From positions 64,001 to 128,000 of IMG/VR virus record IMGVR_UViG_3300005573_000057: a stretch of DNA of 64,000 nucleotides; one strand, 5' to 3'. Below, piece by piece: positions 5,770 to 42,237 of this stretch. A program made the translations under genes and the position numbers. The stretch is from a virus. The notes under the pieces were generated by a model. It was not told the DNA's origin. It saw only the letters and a program-made list of their open reading frames with translations, and ran no database searches. How positions within the stretch are numbered: the first letter of the stretch is position 1; each line of letters begins with the position of its first letter.

Positions 5770-6351
5770 CTAGTGTTTGACGCCAGCAGCGATCATTAGT
5801 GCATCCAAAACAACATCATGAACAGGGTTTTGTTTCATAATGTCGTCAACATCCATATATTGAGGATCAATATCGGTAACTCCTTTTGGGACACTGTACA
5901 ACAAATTAACGGCAGTCCGAGTATCCATATAACGCCAAAACGGGATAAAATTACTCCCAACATCCTTACTCAATGATGCAGAAACGACCTGTGAAAGATG
6001 CCCACGAGTCCAAACAAAAAAGTCTTCATTAGGCAGCAATCGAGAATAGATGTAATCTTGAATTTCTCCAAGCGCAGCTTTACAAGTTGTTGGCTGGGGA
6101 TATTTTTTGGATTCCCCCAAACTAACTTCTTGCACTTCTTTTGGAAGGGTTTTCCAAAACTCAACCGTAGCAGGATCAATTACACGGTCTCCGACTTGCT
6201 CCGAAGTATCAAACTTCACAAGTAATGTGTCTTCGACCAACTCACTGAACAACTTTGGGGTTTCAACGTCAAACTCGACAATTGCAGCACTCACAACGAC
6301 CGAGCGTTCGGATAGCCCCAAAGTTTTGACATTATAAGAAAACATTTTCAT
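5770..6351 (-). CDS. DexA-like DEDDh exonuclease homologue with substituted catalytic residues
   Basis: Overall DexA pattern (xTLG..S VVS, T.EFW, WxRG, FWRYMDTRTAV, NPVHDVVLDALM), but ExoI reads NVK instead of DVE. Confidence 0.7.
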   Translation of the reverse strand: MKMFSYNVKTLGLSERSVVVSAAIVEFDVETPKLFSELVEDTLLVKFDTSEQVGDRVIDPATVEFWKTLPKEVQEVSLGESKKYPQPTTCKAALGEIQDYIYSRLLPNEDFFVWTRGHLSQVVSASLSKDVGSNFIPFWRYMDTRTAVNLLYSVPKGVTDIDPQYMDVDDIMKQNPVHDVVLDALMIAAGVKH

Positions 6352-6614
6352 TTTATGATACCTTGCGTTTCGAACAAATGTTCAACATACAACGATGCAC
6401 CCTTTTCGTCATTCATATTAAAAAACCGAACCGAATAGGACTCGTCCATTTTATTAGTTTCATCAAAAGCAATAATACAAATGCTGTTCATTTCTTTGAT
6501 CAAACTAACACTAACACGGAGATTTCCGCGTTTATACGGCCCCAAACTTTGAATAACAAACGCGATCTTTTTTGGGTTTTCGTGTTGCATGTAAACATCA
6601 ATGTTTGTTTTCAT
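6348..6614 (-). CDS. Hypothetical protein
   Basis: ORF from MKTNIDVY, overlapping regA and the dexA-like gene. Confidence 0.6.
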   Translation of the reverse strand: MKTNIDVYMQHENPKKIAFVIQSLGPYKRGNLRVSVSLIKEMNSICIIAFDETNKMDESYSVRFFNMNDEKGASLYVEHLFETQGIIK

Positions 6615-7053: not shown

Positions 7054-7452
7054 TTATCCTCGTTTAGATTTCAAACCACCCATGTTTGTATAGGTATCTA
7101 CAATTTTCTTCATTTGCTCGTTAGTTAGCAAGCCCTCCACTTCTTGCGCCTTTTTGATACTCATTCCAAAAACCTTTGCTATCAGGCTGACATTTTCCGA
7201 AACCTTGTCCTTCTTACCCCACTCAATATACTTCTTCGCTGTTTTCGGCATCGCATGTCGGTAAAACATGAACTGATCATGCTTTGACAGCGTTGAGTGC
7301 CGATTCATAGATTCAGCATAAAACAGGCAATCCCTACGTTGCGAAAGTGCTCGGTTGACAAGGAACGGATTGTACGCCGCTTCTAACTCGTCAGACCATT
7401 CGACGTTCTTTGTTAGAATATCGCTGATCAAGCCAAAAATGTCAAGCGCCAT
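7054..7452 (-). CDS. gp62: Clamp loader small subunit gp62
   Basis: YNPFLVNRALSQ..DC..YA..MN motif; start taken at MALDIF. Confidence 0.9.
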   Translation of the reverse strand: MALDIFGLISDILTKNVEWSDELEAAYNPFLVNRALSQRRDCLFYAESMNRHSTLSKHDQFMFYRHAMPKTAKKYIEWGKKDKVSENVSLIAKVFGMSIKKAQEVEGLLTNEQMKKIVDTYTNMGGLKSKRG

Positions 7453-7846
7453 TTTTATCTGTCCCAGACAAAACAACCACCAAGCCAACATCGTGTCGCA
7501 AGTAAACACACAATGCTTCCCTGACCTTTTGACCGGCAGCATTCACTGCCAACTCCATCGGTTCCATGATACTAGAAGGAGTAGAATACAAAGAATGAAC
7601 AAAAGTTCCGGTTTCCTTGTCACGAACAATATTCAAAATTTCAGTGACCCCATCGTGTTGTGTCTCCACAGTTTCAGTTTCGGCAAACCACATTGCCATC
7701 CCATTCACGAATTTGACTTTGACTTGTCGATCCTCATAAATGCTCAACGTAACTTCCTTCTGCCTGTTGAAATACCTGACAACACCAGCCATCACAAACA
7801 TCAAAAAAATAGAATAAACAAGATATGAAACGATAATTTCAAACAT
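7442..7846 (-). CDS. Hypothetical protein with N-terminal transmembrane helix
   Basis: Hydrophobic residues 3-24; inserted between gp44 and gp62. Confidence 0.65.
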   Translation of the reverse strand: MFEIIVSYLVYSIFLMFVMAGVVRYFNRQKEVTLSIYEDRQVKVKFVNGMAMWFAETETVETQHDGVTEILNIVRDKETGTFVHSLYSTPSSIMEPMELAVNAAGQKVREALCVYLRHDVGLVVVLSGTDKNGA

Positions 7847-7855
7847 TTTTCTTCC

Positions 7856-8815
7856 TTAAAATTTAACTACGCCCATGATTTCAGTCAAACATGCTGTTGT
7901 ACAAATTTCTTGATCGGCACTGAACGAAGACTTAAACTGATAGTCGGCAAGAAGCAAAATTATATCAGGCAAACATTCAGGACGAACAGTATCTTGCAAA
8001 ATCTTGTAAAACTGCGTATAGAGTGATGATACATCAATATCTGAGTTTCGCCCAACCCATTTACGCATGCTAGAGAAATTTTTATCACGCAATGCGGTCA
8101 GTAGATCATCAAAAACTCCAATATCGTTATCATTCAAAACACTCGAATCAATCGTATTGTCGGTAGCATGACGTTGCAACGAGTTCAGAGTGCGCCTAAA
8201 ATCTGGAAAGTTCTTCGAAATGAGAGCAGCCAGAGACTTTTTATCGTAGGTCGTAACTCCTTCCTGATGTAGAATCTCCATACTACGAACCATCATTTCC
8301 TTTGCTAACACAGCCTTTTCGTTGCTTGGAATCTTAAAGTCAACGACAGTGCAACGACTGTGAATCGCTTCCGAAATCATGCTCTTGAAATTGCATGTAA
8401 AGATAAACCGAGCATTCGAACTAAATTCTTCCAAAGAACCATTCAAGGCTTTTTGCGCTGCTTGTGAAATGTGATCCGATTCATCCAAAATCACAATCTT
8501 TTTTGAATCTGTCAAACTAACCGTTGAGCAAAACTGTCTAATCTGATTCCGTATCATGTCAATGCCGTTTTCTTCGGCAGCTTTGACAAACAACACATCA
8601 GCACCAATTTCACTGGCAAGCGCCCGCGCAACTGTAGTCTTTCCACTTCCGGGAGGGCCAGCTAGAAGGAAATGAGGAATTTCACCCTTATCGACATATC
8701 CTTGAAAGAGTGCCTTCAAATTTTCGGGGATGATACACTCAGAAATCGTTTTGGGCCTATACTTCTGTGCCCACAAAAATTCGTCTGGGTTGATCGAAAT
8801 TGTTACATCTGTCAT
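7856..8815 (-). CDS. gp44: Clamp loader large subunit gp44
   Basis: LWAQKYRP, Walker A GPPGSGKTT, ILDESD, SRC and FPDFRR. Confidence 0.96.
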   Translation of the reverse strand: MTDVTISINPDEFLWAQKYRPKTISECIIPENLKALFQGYVDKGEIPHFLLAGPPGSGKTTVARALASEIGADVLFVKAAEENGIDMIRNQIRQFCSTVSLTDSKKIVILDESDHISQAAQKALNGSLEEFSSNARFIFTCNFKSMISEAIHSRCTVVDFKIPSNEKAVLAKEMMVRSMEILHQEGVTTYDKKSLAALISKNFPDFRRTLNSLQRHATDNTIDSSVLNDNDIGVFDDLLTALRDKNFSSMRKWVGRNSDIDVSSLYTQFYKILQDTVRPECLPDIILLLADYQFKSSFSADQEICTTACLTEIMGVVKF

Positions 8816-8836
8816 GATTTATCCTTGTCGCATTTT

Positions 8837-9443
8837 TTAACATGCCGCCCTCCATAAAGGAGGATAATTCCTACTGTTCTGCGCACGAATCGCTTCAAGC
8901 GTAGTCACTTCGACGAGTTCATCAGTTCAAAGACGATAGATGATCTAGGGCAGCATCAAGCGTCGGGAAGACTCGTTCGCAGCACTGGCGAACCATTTCG
9001 AAGTAGCGCTTCACCGAGGGGTTCTCGACCTGATCAACCAAGAAGATTTGTTTACCCAAGGCTTTTGCAAATCCGATTTCCAACGCCAGCGCATAGCCGC
9101 CCGGATTCGAAGCCTCCATGTTGGCCAAAACAATGTCGGAATGGCGAACCGCCTCTAAGTCCCAACGTGTGTATTCGGCGGGGTCTTGAATGTTGTGTGT
9201 GCTCGGGTCAAGCAGCTCAAACGATCCGCCGAATCTGGCGGCAACTTGAGATTGCCAGTTGGATTTGAACCCACCGGCTAGGTACATCTTTTTAAGGGGT
9301 GTGGGGAGTTTTTTTAACATTGGTGTCCTTCTTAACTGTTTTCATTGCTTTATTATACTCGGTCTATGATTCAAAAGCAACAACAGATTTATCTTTTGCC
9401 CTATCCTTCCTTACCCCAAACTGCGGGGTCTGTAGCTCAATTG
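8837..9443 (-). mobile_element. IS605/TnpB-derived non-autonomous element carrying a passenger gene
   Basis: 9341-9443 aligns with the left end and promoter of the TnpB element at 24141-24242. 8837-8910 aligns with TnpB right ends (38376-38452, 22883-22960). Confidence 0.8.
8922..9320 (-). CDS. Nucleoside 2-deoxyribosyltransferase-like protein (Rcl/MilB-type N-glycosidase fold)
   Basis: MYLAGGF, DLEAVRHSDIV and G.ALEIGFAKALGK motifs; visibly more GC-rich than its flanks. Confidence 0.8.
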   Translation of the reverse strand: MLKKLPTPLKKMYLAGGFKSNWQSQVAARFGGSFELLDPSTHNIQDPAEYTRWDLEAVRHSDIVLANMEASNPGGYALALEIGFAKALGKQIFLVDQVENPSVKRYFEMVRQCCERVFPTLDAALDHLSSLN

Positions 9444-9450
9444 GTCAATG

Positions 9451-9951
9451 TCAATCAGAAATTGGTCTGAAAAACACATGATCACCAATAACCGCCGTTC
9501 TCTCCATTTTACCACTCCACGATGGATTGACTTGTTTCGTATGATAGAACAGTGCTCCACGTGTAGGATCTTCCACGGAATGCGACAATACCATACGCGC
9601 AGCGTTGAATGCCGATTCCCATGCACCAACATAAGTAGACGGAATATAAAGATGTTGGAACCAACCCCGTTTAACAGGCTGTAAGAGCCACGAAAATTGG
9701 TAGGGTGACTCAACTACCTTGCAAACACTATCGGGGAACCTAGCGTTGTTTACGCGGTTTAGGACGACCCAACCAACCGCTATTTGACCTTCCAATGGTT
9801 GACTAGTCGCTTCAAACATGATGTTATAGGCCATGCAAATTTCCTCTTTCAGAGAAACAATCGGATGCGGAATATAACCAGCATCCGAAATAGTGTGCAG
9901 AGGGATCATCACCATGAACACGACTAACACCAGTCTAATCACCGCCCGCAT
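9451..9951 (-). CDS. Cell wall hydrolase SleB/Hydrolase_2
   Basis: Signal peptide; CMAYNIMFEA, AVGWVVLNRV, FPDSVCKVV, YQFSW, GALFYH and IGDHVF. Confidence 0.92.
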   Translation of the reverse strand: MRAVIRLVLVVFMVMIPLHTISDAGYIPHPIVSLKEEICMAYNIMFEATSQPLEGQIAVGWVVLNRVNNARFPDSVCKVVESPYQFSWLLQPVKRGWFQHLYIPSTYVGAWESAFNAARMVLSHSVEDPTRGALFYHTKQVNPSWSGKMERTAVIGDHVFFRPISD

Positions 9952-10454
9952 CAGTGGACAGTCCTCGATTCGAGCGAATCAACAGTCACTTGGCCTTTAT
10001 TTGCAGATTCCTTCAAAGATGTATGAAAATCTTCCACTGTTGAATATTGAACCACATTCAAAGGATTAACTTCATCGCTTTCCCCTTGTTCGACCGCACC
10101 AGATTCACGTTCATCGTTGACGGTTTTTGAAAACTCAGACACCGCCAAAGCAACCCACTTCATTGCGGCATGGGCCGATTCTTTGTCTACCTCAAGAACG
10201 CTTTCAATATCGCCCAAGATGTTGTTCGCAATTTGTGCGTATCGACTATACAAAACCATCGAATCAACTTGTGAACGACCCGCTGTAACTAGACCTGAGA
10301 TAAGCTCCAACGAGTAGACAAGTTTGGCTATTAGACCAGCCGCCTTACCGTACTTTCCCACAAGTTCCGAAAAAGCAATTCCAACTGCATTTTCGACTTT
10401 CACATCATTAGAACCATTACCATTGCCATTGCCATGCCCAGAAAGATCGCTCAT
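9951..10454 (-). CDS. Hypothetical protein
   Basis: 167 aa ORF with RBS GGAG, translationally coupled to the hydrolase gene. Confidence 0.7.
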   Translation of the reverse strand: MSDLSGHGNGNGNGSNDVKVENAVGIAFSELVGKYGKAAGLIAKLVYSLELISGLVTAGRSQVDSMVLYSRYAQIANNILGDIESVLEVDKESAHAAMKWVALAVSEFSKTVNDERESGAVEQGESDEVNPLNVVQYSTVEDFHTSLKESANKGQVTVDSLESRTVH

Positions 10455-11042
10455 GATTTAACTCCTTGGTTATTTAACGAAACTCACTTTTGTCCTTCAC
10501 CAGAAGAACTCAAGTCTACAAAACTTATGGGATTTGTCTATGTCATTGCCCATAATGAAACTAAAAAATCATACATCGGCAAAAAAACTTTTTGGTCACA
10601 CAGAAAGCTCAAACCATCTGACAAACGCAGAACAACAGTCGAAAGCGATTGGAGAACTTACTGCGGGAGCAACAAGGAACTTCAAGCACTGTTCAAAAAG
10701 AATCCATCACACTTCACCCGCACAATCCTTTACTTATGCAATACCAAATATGGAATGTCCTATAACGAAGATCGGCTACTATATGCCTACAATGTCCTTG
10801 AAAACCCCGATCTTTTTTACAACGACAATATAGCAGGAAAATACTTCATTGGCAAGTTTGACCAGTGGTATCGCCCTGCTGGATACGGAGTCTTTCCAGA
10901 GCATCTTCAAACGCAATCGGTGTATAATCCGTATGTTCAACCGATACACACAAATATCGGGGGTCAACCGATCCATCAGGCAACAACACTCGACGCGAAT
11001 GCAAATGACCATGCACATTCCCTACACACCACGTTGCAATAG
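10434..11042 (+). CDS. GIY-YIG-family endonuclease
   Basis: GFVYVI...YIGKK, ESDWRTYCGSN, E..L....VL and FYNDNI; on the strand opposite its neighbours. Confidence 0.8.
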   Translation: MPRKIAHDLTPWLFNETHFCPSPEELKSTKLMGFVYVIAHNETKKSYIGKKTFWSHRKLKPSDKRRTTVESDWRTYCGSNKELQALFKKNPSHFTRTILYLCNTKYGMSYNEDRLLYAYNVLENPDLFYNDNIAGKYFIGKFDQWYRPAGYGVFPEHLQTQSVYNPYVQPIHTNIGGQPIHQATTLDANANDHAHSLHTTLQ

Positions 11043-18826: not shown

Positions 18827-19471
18827 TCATTTCACTCCAGGTTGTTTAACGACTTTTGGCCGACCAGATACGGCCTTGAAAATTCCATCAATGATACGCC
18901 CAACTTGGTGTCTGCCGTTTGGTTCTACACGAACAACCTTGGTTGGATCTGTAGAATGTGGTTCGTAGAAAACATCTTGGGATGCAGAAAGAGTAGCAAG
19001 ATCATCAATGGTAGCAACTGGTGCCACGACTTCGGGAGTTGTAGGATTCAAAATCAGATCATCCCACCCATAAATCTTTGCCAACTCTTTATAGGGAATG
19101 TTAGGGTACAAAAGATCAAGCTTTTGATCCTTTACAGCAATCAAAATTTCACACTCGGGCTTCGTCAAGCCGGTCAAGAGTTCAATGAAAATAGACTCGC
19201 GCTGCACTGCGCGAACATCTGCGCGACAAAACACATAAAACCTGCGCAGTTCGTTGTTCAGATTCACAGCAGTCATTGCGTAAGGAGCCGGATCAAACTT
19301 GTAATTCTCTGGTGCCCCTTCTGGAAGTAGAAACTTTTGACCAGAACGAATTGCATGATTCAGAAGCAGCTTGAGCGCAGAAGATCCAGCAACATCATGA
19401 ACACGATCCGGGTTTTCATTGAGCCACACAATCAGTTCATAAATGCGTGTCGGAGGCGTATTTTGATTCAT
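18827..19471 (-). CDS. Conserved T4-like hypothetical protein (usually follows rnh)
   Basis: LLPEGAP, LRRFYVF, RESIFIELL and EILIAVKD. The true start is the ATGAA just outside the IscB right end. Confidence 0.8.
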   Translation of the reverse strand: MNQNTPPTRIYELIVWLNENPDRVHDVAGSSALKLLLNHAIRSGQKFLLPEGAPENYKFDPAPYAMTAVNLNNELRRFYVFCRADVRAVQRESIFIELLTGLTKPECEILIAVKDQKLDLLYPNIPYKELAKIYGWDDLILNPTTPEVVAPVATIDDLATLSASQDVFYEPHSTDPTKVVRVEPNGRHQVGRIIDGIFKAVSGRPKVVKQPGVK

Positions 19472-20885
19472 CATTTTCGCGTGAAACCTCGGCATTATTG
19501 CCGAGTAGGTAGAGCGCAGAACGCTTCGCGTTCGTTGCTTTGTGGCGTACCTGTTCACTCTCCTTTTTTGCCACAGTTGAATAACCATAACCATCCGCAC
19601 GTTGTACCAAAGTACAGTGCTTGTAGGATATGCCTTGAACGACACCCGTTGCGGTTTGTATATTGAAGTATCCATTTGCACGAACCACTAAGCGCCCAGA
19701 ATGGATTCCAGATTTCTTACCAGTAGGAACACTGGCCTTAACCATATCACCCGTCTGGAAACCTTTGATACTCTTTTTCCTAGTTAGGTATCCACGCGGA
19801 AATCCGAATGCATTCAACTGTGTGCGCTGATAGCGTCCTCGACCTGTACACTTAATTGCCAGTGTCGGTCTTTGCCAGCCCGTAACGGAACTAACTCGAC
19901 CTACGCATACCGCATCAAGCGCGTGTGTTTTCGGAATACCGAGTTGCATACGATTGAATTTCGTCAAACCGCCTGAACCTGTTGTGACCGGAACGTTAAC
20001 AGCTTTGAGCGCATTGAACAACGCCCAACGGGTTGAATTAACCGCCGATGCGTCTTTAAGAGGTCGTTTTGCTTGAGCCAAAATACGATCAAGTCGTTTG
20101 GTATCGTTCGCCAAGAATACGCGAACATCCTGCGCACCTTTTTTCTGGTTGCATGATTGGCAAGCCAAGGCCAGATTCGAGACCCGATTGCTTCCGCCTT
20201 TAGATCGAGGATGGATGTGCTCAATCTGTAATGGCACATCTTTTGCACCGCAGTACGCGCAAACCCTGTTCCACTTGTTGAGCAGATATTCGCGCACTTC
20301 ATAACCGGCTAATGTGCCTTGTTGATACTCAACACCAGAAATTTCCACATTCTGCATTTTTTGCATATCAAACCGAACCAGTTCCTGAGCAATACCAGCA
20401 ACCGGCACCACACGTTGAAAACGATTGACCCATGCAACGGTTGTATCAACCCGGTGTTGTAGAGAAGGAGCTAACCAACCTTTAGGTTTTGTCCGATTGT
20501 CGAAACGGGCTGGCCTATACCGCAACTTGGAACGACGAAAACTTCGATGTTGCCTCCGTGCCGTTAAAGCCTCGCTAATCTGACGCCCGCGATGCAACAA
20601 TTCAAAAAGATTAAGCACATGGACACCAACACTAATTTCACCACTTTCCGCATCAATTTTCTCTGATTCTCTGACCACTGCAATACCTGTAAACTTACTA
20701 CCCGGATCAATTTTTACCTTGATCGGTTGTAATACACAACTGGAAACTTCACGATCAACAATGCGTATCGAAAACGGGATCAGCCGATGAACACGCGCAC
20801 GACCAGACGCGAGCAGTTTTTTTGCTCGTTTCTCGCTGCACGGCATCAGCGGTTTTCCTCGTTTGTCGATTACAAATACTGCCAT
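19437..20885 (-). CDS. iscB: RNA-guided endonuclease IscB
   Basis: PLMP, RuvC-I IDPGS, bridge helix RRQHRSFRR, RuvC-II QELVRFD, HNH EHIHPRSKGGSNRVSNL and RuvC-III HALDA all intact. Confidence 0.96.
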   Translation of the reverse strand: MAVFVIDKRGKPLMPCSEKRAKKLLASGRARVHRLIPFSIRIVDREVSSCVLQPIKVKIDPGSKFTGIAVVRESEKIDAESGEISVGVHVLNLFELLHRGRQISEALTARRQHRSFRRSKLRYRPARFDNRTKPKGWLAPSLQHRVDTTVAWVNRFQRVVPVAGIAQELVRFDMQKMQNVEISGVEYQQGTLAGYEVREYLLNKWNRVCAYCGAKDVPLQIEHIHPRSKGGSNRVSNLALACQSCNQKKGAQDVRVFLANDTKRLDRILAQAKRPLKDASAVNSTRWALFNALKAVNVPVTTGSGGLTKFNRMQLGIPKTHALDAVCVGRVSSVTGWQRPTLAIKCTGRGRYQRTQLNAFGFPRGYLTRKKSIKGFQTGDMVKASVPTGKKSGIHSGRLVVRANGYFNIQTATGVVQGISYKHCTLVQRADGYGYSTVAKKESEQVRHKATNAKRSALYLLGNNAEVSRENDESKYASDTHL

Positions 20886-21173
20886 TTACTTCCTTAAATG
20901 CGCTTACGCGCCTAGTGACGGAGACCTTACGGCCTCGCTCCCCTCGGGAATGTCTGTAACCGGCTCCTGCCTTGCGGCAGCGACTAGAACCTTCGGGCCT
21001 TTACCTTTGCCCAGCATGATCCTAATCTTCCAGTGTCCGGGACTGAGGAAGCATCCCGGAGTGGGTCTCAACGACCTGTTACAAACGTAGCGGATTGGAT
21101 ACCGCTTTCCCTGGTCAACCAAGCTATCAACCTTACGGTTTCTAGCTCCAGCCCGAAAGCCGGGGTAATTGAC
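19472..21173 (-). mobile_element. IS200/IS605-superfamily IscB element (no tnpA)
   Basis: Left end GTCAATTACCCC, omegaRNA, iscB and right-end hairpin CTCGGCAATAATGCCGAG, followed by ATGAA. Confidence 0.92.
20890..21173 (-). ncRNA. omegaRNA of iscB
   Basis: Structured noncoding region immediately upstream of iscB with HEARO-type motifs. Confidence 0.88.
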
Positions 21174-22743: not shown

Positions 22744-22882
22744 AAAAATTCCTTTGGTAGTCAATTTGCAAATTTTAACACGACAACGATTGAAAGTGAA
22801 GGGATGCTTTTTCTTTACACTCCAAAAATTTTTCAATGTACTCGCGTTTCAGAGGACGAACAAAAACTTGAGGACTGCCCAT

Positions 22883-24242
22883 TTGACATCCTCCCCGGCT
22901 CAAAGGCGGGAGATTCCTACTGCGTTCAACACAAAACATGCTGACTCGCTTCGGCGGGTTCCTGCTTCACAGAACGGCCTTGCTGCACCGATTCTCCACA
23001 GGCTAACAAGCGGTATCCCCGCTCTAAAATGTTAATCGCGCCGACCAAATCGGCGTTTTCCTTAAAACCACATTCTACACATGCAAACTTGGCTTGTGTT
23101 TGGCGGTTCTCTGCGGCAACATGACCGCAGTGCGGACACGTCTGGCTTGTGTAATGAGCCGGAACTGGAAGCAGAATGCCACCGTTCCAAGTCATTTTGT
23201 ATTCCAGTTGTCGCCTGAATTCGTCCCATCCCTGATCGAGAATGGCGCGATTCAGTCCAAACTTCTGAGCTACGTTTTTACCCGGTGCTTCGCTATTGCC
23301 TTTAGAAGACTTGGACATATTCCGTACCTGCAAATCTTCAATAACAATCATAGCGTGGTTTTTGCTGATTGTGGTTGAAGTCTTGTGCAGGAAATCTTTG
23401 CGGGCATTAGCGATAGTGCTGTGAATCTTCTGGACTTTAGCTTTCGCCTTTTTCCAGTTACTACTGAACTTAACCTTTCGAGACATGGCACGTTGGTACC
23501 GTGCTAGTCTTTGTTGATGTTTCTTGAAACTGTTAAGCGGTTTAATATAGCTACCATCGCTCAAGGTAGCAAACCGAGTAATGCCCATGTCGATTCCAAT
23601 GGCGCTAGTAGCTGTTGGAATAGGTTGTTCAACTTCGCGTTCAGTTTGAATACTCACAAACCACTTGTCACCGGCTTTGCTGATAGTGACATTGCGTACA
23701 TTGCCTAGCACATCACGACTGTTGCGGTAACGCAACCAACCAAGTTTAGGCAGGTAAATACGGTTGTTGCATTGTTCTAGTTTGATACTTTTCGGGTCTG
23801 GATAACGAAAACTGAGGTGTTGCCCTTTTTTCTTGAACTTTGGAAAATCCGCACGCTTGGCAAAGAAATTGGCATAGGCACGTTCCAAATTCTTGAGCGA
23901 TTGTTGCAACGGGTGAACAGGAGAATCTCTTAACCACGTAGTATCGGTGCTGTTGCGCCATTCTGTGAGCATCTTGCACAACCCCGCATAACCAAGCTTT
24001 TTCTCGCGTTGCTCGTAACGCTCTTTCTGCATCGCTAAAGCCTTGTTGAAAACAAACCGGCACGACCCGGCGAAGCTACGCATTTTGCGTTGCTGTTCGC
24101 CGTTTGGCATCAGTTCGTATTTGTAGGCTTGTAGACGTTTCATGGCTTTATTATACTAGGTCTATGGTTCAAAAGCAACAACAGATTTACTTTCGCGCTA
24201 TCATTCCCCGCCTTGAACGGCGGGGTTTGTCGCGCAACTAAA
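22883..24242 (-). mobile_element. IS605-family (IS1341-type, tnpB-only) element 1
   Basis: Left-end hairpin preceded by TTGAT; right end finishes ...GGGGAGGATGTCAA. Confidence 0.88.
22926..24143 (-). CDS. tnpB: TnpB RNA-guided endonuclease
   Basis: RuvC GIDMG / IEDL / NAD, zinc finger CPHC..CVEC. Confidence 0.95.
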   Translation of the reverse strand: MKRLQAYKYELMPNGEQQRKMRSFAGSCRFVFNKALAMQKERYEQREKKLGYAGLCKMLTEWRNSTDTTWLRDSPVHPLQQSLKNLERAYANFFAKRADFPKFKKKGQHLSFRYPDPKSIKLEQCNNRIYLPKLGWLRYRNSRDVLGNVRNVTISKAGDKWFVSIQTEREVEQPIPTATSAIGIDMGITRFATLSDGSYIKPLNSFKKHQQRLARYQRAMSRKVKFSSNWKKAKAKVQKIHSTIANARKDFLHKTSTTISKNHAMIVIEDLQVRNMSKSSKGNSEAPGKNVAQKFGLNRAILDQGWDEFRRQLEYKMTWNGGILLPVPAHYTSQTCPHCGHVAAENRQTQAKFACVECGFKENADLVGAINILERGYRLLACGESVQQGRSVKQEPAEASQHVLC

Positions 24243-31805: not shown

Positions 31806-33103
31806 GTGAATTGCCCCGCCCTAAAGGACAGAGCTTCTAATTTCGACGGCACGAGCAAGGACAGAAGGGTTCTTCCCTCTGACTTGGCTAACAGTGCCTC
31901 GATTAGCAGTACCGGCGATTCCCGCCGCTATTATTCTTTGCGCTTCATTGCTGATGTTTTTGGCGGCATTTATGTCCCTATCATGCAGAGTGCCGCATTG
32001 GTCACATCGCCAAGAGCGAATACTTAAAGGCATTGAAGGTTGAACGTGTAGACAACACGAACAAGTTTTACTCGACGGGAAATAGCGGTTTACCTTCACG
32101 AATCCTTTGCCCGCTTTCGCGGCCTTGTATTCGAGAAATCTGGTAAACATGCCCCATCCCGCATCCCCAATAGCCTTTGCCAAGCAATGATTTTTCATCA
32201 TTCCTTTGACGTTCAAATCCTCAACGGCAATGACTTTGTTTTCGTCAACAAGTCGTCGAGAAAGTTTGTGCAACCAGTCCTTGCGAGCATTAGCGACACG
32301 TTCATGCGCCTTTGCCACAAGGATTCTAGCTTTGTTTCTGGTGTTACTATCTTTCTTTTTACGGGAAAGCTTTTGTTGCTTCCGTTTTAGGTTCTTGGTT
32401 GCTTTCGCCAAGTGACGAGGATTTTTGAACTTCGATCCGTCGCTAGTGACAACAAGATGAGTAAGACCAACATCTATGCCGATGATCTTGCCGTCAAAAG
32501 AAACTTTTGGTACGTCAAGACCGTTTTCAGTCAGAATAGAAGCAAAGTATTGACCCGATTGATTCCGGCTTACAGTGACGGTTTTGATCTTTCCCACAAT
32601 CTCACGATGCACGACTGCCTTGATGTGACCGATCTTCGGCAAATAAAGTTTACGCCCATCAACAATCTTAACGTCTTGTGGGTATTGGATGGACTGTTTA
32701 CCGTGCTTCGATTTAAAGTTAGGGTACTTAGCACGATTCTTGAAGAAGTTTACAAAAGCACGAGAAAGATTAAGACTTACAGCTTGAAGTACCTGAGCAT
32801 AGGGTTCAGCAAGCCACTCGTATTCTTTCTTGAGTTCTGGAAGGCGCTTGGTCAAATCGAAATGGCTAAGACCTTTGCCGGTTTCTTTATATGTCTTTTG
32901 CGTTTCTGCCAAGCTGTTGTTCCACAACCACCGCGCACAGCCGAACGCCTTGGCAAGAGATTCTTCCTGCTTGGCGTTTGGATAGATGCGAATTTTGGTG
33001 GCTGTTAACATATCTTTAGTAGGTAGTGTACCCTAATTTTATTCAAAAGTCAATAGAACACTTACATTCCCCACCTAAAGGAGAGGGTTTTACGTGTAAT
33101 CGG
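31806..33103 (-). mobile_element. IS605-family tnpB-only element 2 (second subfamily)
   Basis: Left end CCGATTACAC...CCTTTAGG hairpin; right end ...CTTTAGGGCGGGGCAATTCAC. Confidence 0.8.
31821..33011 (-). CDS. tnpB: TnpB RNA-guided endonuclease
   Basis: RIYP HTH start, GIDVG / VEDL / DRDINAA, zinc finger CSCC..CDQC. Confidence 0.95.
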   Translation of the reverse strand: MLTATKIRIYPNAKQEESLAKAFGCARWLWNNSLAETQKTYKETGKGLSHFDLTKRLPELKKEYEWLAEPYAQVLQAVSLNLSRAFVNFFKNRAKYPNFKSKHGKQSIQYPQDVKIVDGRKLYLPKIGHIKAVVHREIVGKIKTVTVSRNQSGQYFASILTENGLDVPKVSFDGKIIGIDVGLTHLVVTSDGSKFKNPRHLAKATKNLKRKQQKLSRKKKDSNTRNKARILVAKAHERVANARKDWLHKLSRRLVDENKVIAVEDLNVKGMMKNHCLAKAIGDAGWGMFTRFLEYKAAKAGKGFVKVNRYFPSSKTCSCCLHVQPSMPLSIRSWRCDQCGTLHDRDINAAKNISNEAQRIIAAGIAGTANRGTVSQVRGKNPSVLARAVEIRSSVL

Positions 33104-38191: not shown

Positions 38192-38375
38192 TTTTTTACC
38201 AGCAATGAAAGAAAGTAATGGTTAGAAAAAGAAAAACCCCTCGAACAAGGGGTGGTCTATGATGTACAGAAAGATCAGAAAATCTTACAAGTTTGGTGAC
38301 TACTTGCGGCATTGATTATCAAATTGGTCTACAAGGTCATGAAAAGTGAACGCGAAATCCAAAAATTCCTTTTTT

Positions 38376-39672
38376 TTGACATCCTCCCCGGCCCGAAGGC
38401 CGAAGATTCCTACTGCGCTACACGATAATTTGTGTAGTCACTTCGGCGGGTTCCTGCTTCACAGAACGGCCTTGCTGCACCGATTCTCCACAGGCTAACA
38501 AGCGAAATCCTCGCTCTAAAATATTGATTGCACCGACTAGATCGGCGTTTTCCTCATACCCACAGTCCACACATGCAAACTTGGCTTGTGTCTGGCGATT
38601 CTCTGCCGACACACAACCGCAGTCCGGGCAAGTCTGACTGGTGTAATGAGCCGGAACTGCAAGCAGAATGCCACCGTTCCAAGCCATTTTGTATTCCAGT
38701 TGTCTCCTGAATTCGCTCCATCCTTGATCGAGGATCAAATGGTTCAGACCGGATTTTTGTCTGACTTTCTTGCCGTGTTGTTCACTATTGCCCTTTGAAG
38801 ACTTGGACATATTCCGTACCTGCAAATCTTCAATAACAATCATAGCGTGGTTTTTGCTGATCATTGTTGAGGCTTTATGCAGGAAGTCTTTCCGGGCATT
38901 GGCGATACTGCTGTAAATCTTCTGGACTTTGGCCTTCGCCTTTTTCCAGTTACTACTGAACTTAACTTTGTGACCCATTCGCCGCTGGTATTTTTTCAGG
39001 CGCTTCTCATGTTTCTTGAAACTGTTAAGCGGTTTAATATAGCTACCATCGCTCAATGTAGCGAAGCGAGTAATGCCCATGTCGATACCAACGGCAGTTG
39101 TGGCCGTTGGAACAGGCTGTTCGACTTCACGTTGCGTCTGAATCGAGGCAAACCACTTTCCTGCCACCTGACTTACCGTGACATTTCGCAGTTCGCCTAG
39201 AACATCACGACTGTTGCGGTAGCGCAACCAACCAAGTTTAGGCAGGAAAATACGGTCATTGGTCTGATCAAGCTTAATCTTTTTAGGGTCAGGATAACGA
39301 AAACTGACGTGTTGATCTTTTTTCTTGAACTTTGGAAAATTTGCACGTTTAGCAAAGAAGTTCTTGTAAGCGCGTTCTAAGTCTTTAAGCGTCTGTTGCA
39401 ACGGATGCACAGGAGCATCCCCGAGCCACGGCGTTTCCGTTCCATTGCGCCAACCAGTCAAGTGCTTCGTCATAGAAAAGTAGCCGATGAACTTGTTCCC
39501 AGCTTCGTGATTTTCTTTCTGCAACGCCAAAGCCTTGTTATAAACAAACCGGCACGACCCAGCGAAGCTACGCATTTTGCGTTGCTGTTCGCCATTCGGC
39601 ATCAGTTCGTATTTGTAAGCTTGTAGACGTTTCATAACTTTATTATACTAGGTCTATGGTTCAAAAGCAACA
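38376..39672 (-). mobile_element. IS605-family tnpB element 3, left-end hairpin missing
   Basis: Right end as in element 1; homology to the element 1 left end stops after the TTGCTT-17-TATAAT promoter. Confidence 0.82.
38418..39635 (-). CDS. tnpB: TnpB RNA-guided endonuclease (paralogue of 22926-24143)
   Basis: Intact RuvC D/E/D and zinc finger; long identical stretches with TnpB 1. Confidence 0.95.
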   Translation of the reverse strand: MKRLQAYKYELMPNGEQQRKMRSFAGSCRFVYNKALALQKENHEAGNKFIGYFSMTKHLTGWRNGTETPWLGDAPVHPLQQTLKDLERAYKNFFAKRANFPKFKKKDQHVSFRYPDPKKIKLDQTNDRIFLPKLGWLRYRNSRDVLGELRNVTVSQVAGKWFASIQTQREVEQPVPTATTAVGIDMGITRFATLSDGSYIKPLNSFKKHEKRLKKYQRRMGHKVKFSSNWKKAKAKVQKIYSSIANARKDFLHKASTMISKNHAMIVIEDLQVRNMSKSSKGNSEQHGKKVRQKSGLNHLILDQGWSEFRRQLEYKMAWNGGILLAVPAHYTSQTCPDCGCVSAENRQTQAKFACVDCGYEENADLVGAINILERGFRLLACGESVQQGRSVKQEPAEVTTQIIV

Positions 39673-39693: not shown

Positions 39694-39786
39694 TGGCGGG
39701 AACCGTGAGACTCGAACTCACACGCCCCTTTCGGGGCCTTCGGTTTTCAAGGCCGCTGCCGCTAGTCCAACTCGGCTTAGGTTCCC
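39694..39786 (-). tRNA. tRNA-Ser(UGA)
   Basis: Long variable arm, loop CT-TGA-AA and GCCA end. Confidence 0.88.
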
Positions 39787-40656: not shown

Positions 40657-40997
40657 AGCAATCTCCATTTTTGCCACAGTTAAAAGGTGGGAGCTTTTCA
40701 CTCCGCCGGGCCGTGAGGCTCTGCCCGTAAGGGCCTAGTGACGGAACCTTTCGGTTCGCTCCCCTCGCCAATGTTGTAACGCAGCTTCGTCCTTTAAGGG
40801 ACTTGCGACAAGCTGTTTCGTGCGTACCCTATGCTTGTCTACTCCTGCCGCTTGCAGAGCAATGGACTGAGGAAGCATCCATTGGTGCGTCTTGTACTTC
40901 GTTACAACGTAGTCACGATGTTTTGTGACTGAGGCTGGTCAACCGAGCTATCGACCTTGCGGTTTCTAGCTCCGGCCCGAAAGCCGGGGTAGTTGAC
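40657..40997 (-). mobile_element. IscB mini-element with divergent omegaRNA core and deleted right-end hairpin
   Basis: 40936-40997 matches the iscB left end; 40662-40745 matches 428-510; the middle is a different omegaRNA variant. Confidence 0.85.
40725..40997 (-). ncRNA. Stand-alone omegaRNA, second subtype
   Basis: GTCAAC/GTTGAC helix, CTACGTT, GGATGCTTCCTCAGTCC and ACATTGGCGAGGGGAGC. Confidence 0.8.
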
Positions 40998-41897: not shown

Positions 41898-41929
41898 AAA
41901 TTCCTAAAAAATCAAGCTAGTGAATTAGT

Positions 41930-42200
41930 GTAGGGAATTCTGTTCCCAAGTTTCCCTACAGACTCGTAGCCTATTGCTTAAGCAGCAATCGCTTGGGCGT
42001 AAACCTCGTCGTTAGCGTTTACAGTTTTGCTCTGATTACGTCAGTCGCCTCTCGTGTTGCAACCTCAATTTCTTTAGCATGTCGAATCCAGATCGCCCCC
42101 ATCAAAAACACTCCTTAAAATGCTTATGGTGGAGGCGGCGGGAATTGAACCCGCGTCCACGCCGCTTCCATCTTAGTTGAATAACAACAATTCTGTGAAT
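41930..42200 (-). ncRNA. ssrA: Circularly permuted (two-piece) tmRNA; tag ANDEVYAQAIAA
   Basis: On the minus strand the T-arm/acceptor (GACGCGGGTTCAATTCCCGCCGCCTCCACCA, ending 42127) precedes a 26-nt spacer and the GGGGGCGA..TGGATTCGAC segment (starting 42100), then the tag ORF at 42016-41978. Confidence 0.9.
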
Positions 42201-42237
42201 TTTGTTGGTTTAGTATGTAGAGAAACCGAGTTTTTGG

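Follow-up and report, generated by a model that had tools for sequence, protein, structure and literature searches.

The 64,000-nucleotide stretch analyzed here (the window) covers positions 64001-128000 in a virus record of 140,449 bp that derives from a T4-like phage and has an estimated completeness of 79%; the nearest relatives of its gp44 in IMG/VR are only ~50% identical, which marks the phage as an isolated lineage. Between a SleB-like gene and gp44, and adjoining the clamp-loader genes, lies a single gene encoding a nucleoside deoxyribosyltransferase-like (NDT-like) protein, which together with its transposon-like flanks we refer to as the cassette (Table 1). The NDT-like gene has a GC content of 51%, compared with ~43% in its surroundings. 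The initial annotation had already noted this difference, had placed the gene behind an insertion sequence (IS) promoter next to the clamp-loader genes and had delimited a TnpB transposon shell at 8837-9448. These observations stand, and the coordinates fit the element boundaries to within 6 nt. Two hot-spring metagenomes are the only public runs that hold this stretch, and across the 2.3 kb that surround the NDT-like gene the identity among five contigs drawn from four samples is 99.95-100%; the cassette is fixed in the phage population.

The phage also encodes eight tRNAs and three HEARO RNAs. One HEARO match (20932-21173) precedes a 482-aa ORF (19437-20885), while behind another (40754-40997) a nuclease gene is absent. 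On the opposite strand ~1 kb from the cassette there is an ORF at 10434-11042 (+) that is annotated as a SegE-like GIY-YIG protein on an identical contig (L007), which would place a homing endonuclease in the same gene block as the cassette.

Table 1. Features of the cassette, its surroundings and the related elements (window positions unless another record is named)
Feature	Position	Strand	Remarks
Clamp-loader A subunit	7054-7542	-	gene neighbourhood
gp44	7856-8815	-	gene neighbour of the NDT-like gene
Flank in guide position of a TnpB omegaRNA	8816-8836	-	AAAAATGCGACAAGGATAAATC; placement from right-end alignment; function inferred
IS right end	8837-8924	-	tnpB 3' remnant of ~40 nt, two 3'-proximal omegaRNA stem-loops, terminal CATGTTAA
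Captured bacterial fragment, 422 bp	8914-9335	-	blastn to bacterial loci; 15 nt of orf235, NDT-like ORF, 8 nt
NDT-like gene, 132 aa	8922-9320	-	Pfam; AF2; Foldseek; PDB profile; triad Y13/D54/E81
IS left end	9339-9443	-	hairpin ACCCCGC..GGGGT ~9429-9413; promoter ~9378-9350; tnpB RBS/start ATGAAAC 9345-9339
TAM-like target TTGAC ATTGAC	9444-9454	-	directly 5' of left end; putative; boundary ambiguous by 6 nt
Hydrolase_2 (SleB-like) gene	9451-9951	-	other neighbour of the NDT-like gene; Pfam
E1, intact TnpB element	22882-24237	-	tnpB 22926-24143, 405 aa; nearest relative of the cassette's left end
E2, full TnpB ORF	31821-33011		different family from E1/E3
E3, intact TnpB element	38375-39672	-	tnpB 38418-39635, 405 aa; nearest relative of the cassette's right end
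tRNA-Ser	39694-39786	-	adjoins truncated left edge of E3
Two-piece (permuted) Betaproteobacteria-type tmRNA	41921-42235	-	RF01850, 148 bits; ARAGORN tag peptide ANDEVYAQAIAA
HEARO (IscB omegaRNA) matches, three	521-761, 20932-21173, 40754-40997	-	above Rfam gathering score
Mini element, E1/E3 family	G000 ~62512-62259	-	just outside the window, 1.5 kb before its start

Three full TnpB proteins are encoded in the window by E1, E2 and E3, all with the HTH_OrfB, OrfB_IS605 and Cas12f1-like TNB domains of Pfam, and E1 and E3 are 81% identical to each other over ~1300 nt. A further element of the E1/E3 family, the mini element, consists of TTGAT, the left-end hairpin and the promoter joined directly to the last ~165 nt of a tnpB element and ends in GATGTCAA; to judge from this arrangement it is a genuine omegaRNA-only derivative. 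Its tnpB remnant contains stop codons. E3 is without the distal left end and hairpin, with the homology to E1 ending at 39672, 22 nt from the 3' end of tRNA-Ser.

The flanks of the NDT-like gene were aligned to these elements. At the left end, positions 9440-9340 are 83% identical over 101 nt to 24237-24138 of E1 (E 1e-24), positions 9382-9340 are 91% identical over 43 nt to 39672-39630 of E3, and the identity to the mini element is 92% over 49 nt. The homology extends as far as the tnpB start, ATGAAA(C) (9345-9339), and breaks off there, and in a four-way alignment of the cassette, E1, E3 and the mini element the promoter TTGCTT-17-TATAAT is present and conserved in every copy. A generic sigma-70 promoter scan did not call this promoter because its -35 hexamer matches at only 3/6 positions, and the same promoter/terminator scan called no terminator after the NDT-like gene, so that transcription probably continues into gp44. 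At the right end, positions 8924-8837 align colinearly with the terminal ~88 nt of the other copies, with local alignment z scores of 8.9 for E3, 6.0 for the mini element and 3.9 for E1, which were matched by 0, 0 and 10 of 2000 shuffles, respectively; the blocks common to the copies are GAAC.CG.CGAAG, GTAGGAAT, a hairpin and ATGT(C/T)AA. A left end with the tnpB promoter and a residual ATGAAA, and a distal right end with reRNA sequence, had both been proposed from inspection, and in formal alignments the homology was significant at both ends. The reading of window 9443-8837 (minus strand) as a TnpB-type IS200/IS605 shell around the NDT-like gene holds.

This shell differs from its relatives in several respects. 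Its tnpB is reduced to ATGAAAC and the last ~40 nt of the coding region, the gene having been replaced from ~codon 3 to ~codon 390 or up to ~37 codons before the stop. Of the omegaRNA scaffold it keeps the last two helices and has lost the 5' pair, the sequence of which does not differ between E1, E3 and the mini element. The left boundary reads TTGAC in the cassette versus TTGAT in E1 and the mini element, the first TTGAC including the TGA stop of the SleB-like gene (9451-9453), and the right terminus is CATGTTAA versus GATGTCAA in the other copies, with TTAA in place of the TCAA of the three others. The hairpins of the cassette occupy positions homologous to those of the family; the left-end hairpin has a predicted energy of -4.5 kcal/mol (z -0.65) versus -14.4 for the left end of E1, and the right-end hairpin, the stem of which carries compensating changes, one of -4.4 kcal/mol (z -1.3). 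The flank in guide position contains the RBS of gp44, which starts at 8815. The residual tnpB start opens a 17-codon ORF (9292-9345, minus strand; ATG AAA ACA ... TAA) that runs across the start of the NDT-like gene in a different frame; it could provide a leader peptide or allow translational coupling.

The assignment of the gene within this shell as nucleoside deoxyribosyltransferase-like, also made in the initial annotation, was borne out by several lines of analysis. The protein scored just above the Pfam cut-offs for PF15891 (31.6 bits, cut-off 30) and PF05014 (30.9 bits, cut-off 28.8), and a 57-sequence family profile searched against the PDB retrieved YtoQ (2.5e-8), CMP N-glycosidase (1.5e-6) and NDT (3e-5). 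An AF2 model (pLDDT 94.1, pTM 0.88) matched NDT, CMP N-glycosidase (BcmB/MilB) and DNPH1 in Foldseek at probability 1.00, with TM values of 0.6-0.74 to 7o62, 2a0k, 4jen and 6qai, and the product is accordingly modeled as a flavodoxin-like NDT-fold protein. All 57 sequences have E81, and at least 90% of them have D54 and Y13; by profile offsets, Y13, D54 and E81 align to Y7, D62 and E88 of the Chroococcidiopsis NDT (CtNDT), the positions at which the listed PDB entries carry mutations. The NDT-type catalytic Tyr/Asp/Glu triad is, on this alignment, intact in the phage protein. The NDT/DNPH1(Rcl)/CMP N-glycosidase (MilB, BcmB) superfamily thus shares both the fold and the Tyr-Asp-Glu arrangement with the phage protein, although the sequence identity is only 15-25%. 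NDT-like proteins also serve as retron effectors. In total, 342 protein homologues were found, the best of them 75-89% identical and encoded in Beta- and Gammaproteobacteria. PADLOC 2.0, NCBIfam and PHROGs yielded no family for the NDT protein or for the product of orf235, the gene that accompanies it in bacteria (below), and a literature search yielded no paper on a deoxyribosyltransferase together with SspH, nor on PF15891.

The origin of the cassette interior (9335-8914) is new in this analysis. By blastn, this fragment is 90.3% identical at the nucleotide level to positions 5986-6407 of a betaproteobacterial metagenomic contig from the same hot-spring samples (L001) and 85.1% identical to a locus in a Curvibacter metagenome-assembled genome (MAG; L021). 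The upstream edge of the fragment is 15 nt before the ATG and falls within the orf235 coding sequence, from the tail of which the RBS AAGAAGGA comes, and its other edge lies 8 nt past the stop codon of the NDT-like gene. The left junction, ATGAAAC|AGTT, is blunt to within 2 nt. The right junction falls in an imperfect microhomology of ~8-12 nt, GAAC(T/C)CG(T/C)CGAA, in which the IS end and the bacterial fragment overlap; in the alignment of this junction the bacterium reads GGACTCGCCAA, the IS GAACCCGCCGAAG and the phage cassette GAACTCGTCGAAG. In both hot-spring runs there are bacterial-copy contigs whose alignment to the phage spans precisely 8914-9335 before they run into bacterial flanks, from which it follows that the phage and a donor-like bacterium occur together; both copies are also present in one JGI sample (L004 and L009). 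In run X2, a single 314-nt Logan contig (window 8852-9165) resembled the phage across the right end and the 3' portion of the gene and carried 14 bacterial-type SNPs from 9033 onward. This contig is either an assembly chimera over a shared 35-mer (8998-9032) or a product of phage-host gene conversion.

The initial annotation had regarded the cargo as host-derived, a view with which the 90% identity to a co-occurring betaproteobacterial contig and the Betaproteobacteria-type tmRNA of the phage agree. The type of this tmRNA hints at a betaproteobacterial host, although the phage gp44 resembles that of cyanophages. In the Curvibacter MAG with the second-closest homologue, which is incomplete, neither an E1-type TnpB nor the phage tmRNA was found.

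In order to establish the direction of transfer, substitutions between the phage and L001 were polarised with L021 as the outgroup. The phage branch accounted for 33 substitutions and the L001 branch for 2. The changes on the phage branch were GC>AT in 28/33 cases and AT>GC in 1/33, 22 of them were at third codon positions, and the GC3 of the gene dropped from 0.74 to 0.59. In a quick ML tree the phage protein was sister to P0002 (SH-aLRT 92) within a clade containing Curvibacter, with the entire branch length of this pair on the phage side. The dN/dS of the phage versus L001 was 0.147, compared with 0.148 between the two bacterial orthologues; the phage branch had 21 synonymous and 12 non-synonymous changes where 76% non-synonymous would be expected under neutrality (P=1.1e-6), and 0/12 of the replacements were at invariant columns. 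The orf235 tail, the substitution pattern and the sustained constraint together argue that the gene was taken from a bacterium and kept functional. As read from these comparisons, the direction of transfer is from bacterium to phage, the gene has been resident in an AT-rich genome long enough for ~8% base change, and it has stayed under purifying selection since its capture. Transfer from phage to bacterium was considered and is ruled out by the operon context conserved in 9/9 reference loci, the orf235 tail inside the phage fragment and the polarised substitutions.

The identity of the cargo as a component of an Ssp phosphorothioate defence operon had been missed in the initial annotation. 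In both L001 and L021 the NDT-like gene is the last of five translationally coupled, overlapping cistrons, sspF-sspG-sspH-orf235-NDT, and this operon is divergent from or adjacent to sspB-sspC-sspD. PADLOC identified SspH (E=0), SspB, SspC, SspD, SspF and SspG around the NDT homologue on the donor-type loci. Among the reference-genome loci, the homologue follows orf235 in 9/9 and, in 8/9, is also behind sspH beside sspBCD. By PADLOC the donor locus is a canonical sspBCD plus sspFGH of the SspBCD-SspFGH phosphorothioate defence. SspFGH as published comprises three effector genes (Wang et al. 2021, PMC8092258); beyond these, the donor operon has orf235 and the NDT gene. The phage holds just the last gene, and no sspF/sspG/sspH/sspBCD operon surrounds its copy.

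The product of orf235 has conserved hydrophobic blocks and a weak, sub-threshold match to MASE5, and from these features looks like a membrane protein of 235 aa. A sensitive search showed that most of the more distant relatives of the NDT protein are proteins of 360-420 aa in which the NDT domain is C-terminal and the N-terminal part is homologous to orf235 (hhalign 95%, E 3e-8), and it follows that orf235 and NDT are halves of one module. Such a fusion lies directly behind sspC-sspD in one locus (L118, 3-5364), another adjoins a gene of the DUF4007 family, the family of SspB, and a further one is beside Septu-like PtuA/B genes (L115, 3537-5596). The bacterial relatives of the phage protein thus work with, or are fused to, a membrane protein, unlike the superfamily comparators described above. 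Orf235 and NDT, whether coupled (L021, 1-9399) or fused, may constitute an undescribed Ssp-associated effector.

From its fold and triad, the phage product is predicted to be a soluble N-glycosidase or transferase acting on a nucleotide, and it would represent the free catalytic half of a two-part, elsewhere fused, module of membrane anchor and NDT that accompanies SspBCD systems. The phage may therefore have stolen part of the anti-phage defence of its host. We speculate that the gene interferes with the host module, whether its product titrates the membrane partner or SspFGH or, early in infection, destroys the substrate or signal of that module, a role which we consider possible at somewhat less than an even chance. 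Nearly as well placed is the explanation that this is a plain auxiliary gene of nucleotide metabolism, encoding a dNMP/NMP N-glycosidase or deoxyribosyltransferase for sanitation or salvage, with its origin in a defence operon incidental; this we can entertain only tentatively. The NDT/DNPH1/CMP-glycosidase fold with its intact triad and the adjoining replication genes are in keeping with such a function. In the ESM Atlas, viral sequences make up most of the nearest clusters of small PF15891 proteins, although these are language-model look-alikes and provide a lead only, and small stand-alone NDT-like proteins are apparently common in phages, which favours a metabolic role over counter-defence. 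Moreover, the purifying selection includes the catalytic residues, from which it would follow that the activity matters and not merely binding. On the other hand, all of the closest relatives are genes of defence islands with ties to a membrane partner, and the gene had no match in PHROGs and none by tblastn of its protein against 50,697 phage records, which puts it outside any established phage metabolic family. The more specific version of interference, counter-defence by the stolen soluble subunit of an undescribed membrane-anchored NDT effector of SspBCD/SspFGH that is expressed early from the recycled transposon promoter, is rather unlikely as a complete statement. A role other than interference or the nucleotide pool is improbable, and it is more improbable still that the gene has no selected role.

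With regard to how the cassette arose, we propose that the tnpB of a resident phage IS copy was replaced in situ by illegitimate recombination with host DNA during infection. The fragment itself is the 3' end of the sspF-sspG-sspH-orf235-NDT operon of a Comamonadaceae-like bacterium of the same hot springs. The conserved IS promoter is predicted to transcribe the NDT-like gene now, and translation would start from the RBS carried in with the orf235 tail. Taken jointly, and leaving the role of the gene aside, the shell, the origin of the cargo, the direction of transfer, the selection and the in-situ capture make up an account that we hold to be quite probable. An empty sleB-gp44 site was not found: sleB or orf167 was nearby in 0/80 of the IMG/VR gp44 relatives (which are at most 52% identical), the relatives found via SleB are at most 39% identical, and a joint skipping the element was not seen in the contigs of the two hot-spring runs. 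As such, the order of events (IS insertion, then replacement) and the birthplace of the chimera rest on parsimony. The divergence of the shell from E1 (83%) and E3 (~70%) is about equal to that between E1 and E3, and for this reason an origin in another genome, followed by arrival through transposition or recombination, is possible.

The initial annotation had instead seen the shell as a delivery vehicle, that is, as an active non-autonomous IS605 element whose gene was picked up elsewhere and moved by TnpA in trans or by TnpB-guided homing. This we judge to be improbable. Non-autonomous PATE-like IS605 relatives keep similar transposon ends, and those without protein genes are documented and, where they lack tnpA, predicted to be mobilisable in trans (Meers et al., bioRxiv 10.1101/2023.03.14.532601). 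Likewise in keeping with mobility are the TAM-like TTGAC that coincides with the left boundary (TTGAT in E1 and the mini element), the right-end hairpin retained with compensating changes, and the fact that neither E1 nor E3 was recently copied to give the shell. However, the cassette was found once: there is no second copy in the phage record, a search of IMG/VR for the gene returned the same phage only, and a 32-nt left-end promoter pattern, strict enough that diverged relatives would escape it, occurred in no other viral contig and no metagenome contig. A Y1 transposase (Y1_Tnp) was also absent from the 140-kb record, 79% of the estimated genome. The search for the same gene with the same ends elsewhere thus gave a different answer from the one that a vehicle would predict, since in 9/9 reference loci the gene follows orf235 instead, and where contexts were read the 342 homologues lie in bacterial defence loci. 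Given that the bacterial homologues never carry IS ends, we read the IS copy as the recipient of host DNA and not its carrier. The TTAA terminus and the weak left-end hairpin likewise count against mobility, and with the most conserved 5' half of the omegaRNA scaffold missing, TnpB-guided homing is unlikely. It is highly improbable that the flanks belong to a generic PeSL-like cassette of phage promoter and stem-loop that homologous recombination has spread, with the IS likeness secondary: the promoter-gene-stem-loop architecture is like that of the PeSL cassettes of T4-type phages, but the homology covers the tnpB start codon and ~40 nt of tnpB 3' coding sequence and stops at the same TTGAT/TCAA-type boundaries as in bona fide TnpB elements.

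The cassette is more probably, on the basis of its alignments, a dead-end derivative of the TnpB-only IS200/IS605 family of which E1, E3 and the mini element are copies in this phage. Like other non-autonomous IS200/IS605 derivatives (TnpB-only elements, PATEs and omegaRNA-only elements), it has both ends and no TnpA, with weak predicted hairpins at the subterminal positions and a TAM-like sequence at the left boundary, and its genome also contains intact TnpB copies and a mini element that is truly omegaRNA-only. Unlike them, it has a foreign gene in place of tnpB, no 5' half of the omegaRNA, a single copy and eroded ends. A second comparison is with the transporter IS (tIS; the concept of Siguier/Chandler, ISfinder), an IS with passenger genes that usually has a transposase and occurs in several copies. 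The cassette likewise has IS ends bracketing a passenger gene unrelated to transposition; unlike a tIS, it has had the only gene of the element replaced and no mobility was seen.

The cassette represents a clean and datable case of host-to-phage gene capture, with breakpoints placed within ~2-10 nt, a donor-like lineage in the same samples, and amelioration and selection that are both measurable. A defunct TnpB element that would serve as a ready-made expression slot points to a role for OMEGA/IS605 relics in gene acquisition by phages. The cargo also reveals two unannotated, often fused genes that travel with Ssp systems, one for a predicted membrane protein of 235 aa and one for an NDT-like enzyme of 132 aa. 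If the counter-defence interpretation is true, the phage gene would be an anti-Ssp factor obtained by the theft of a subunit and would provide a handle on the function of the module, and orf235 plus NDT, separate or fused, would represent a type of effector new to Ssp systems.
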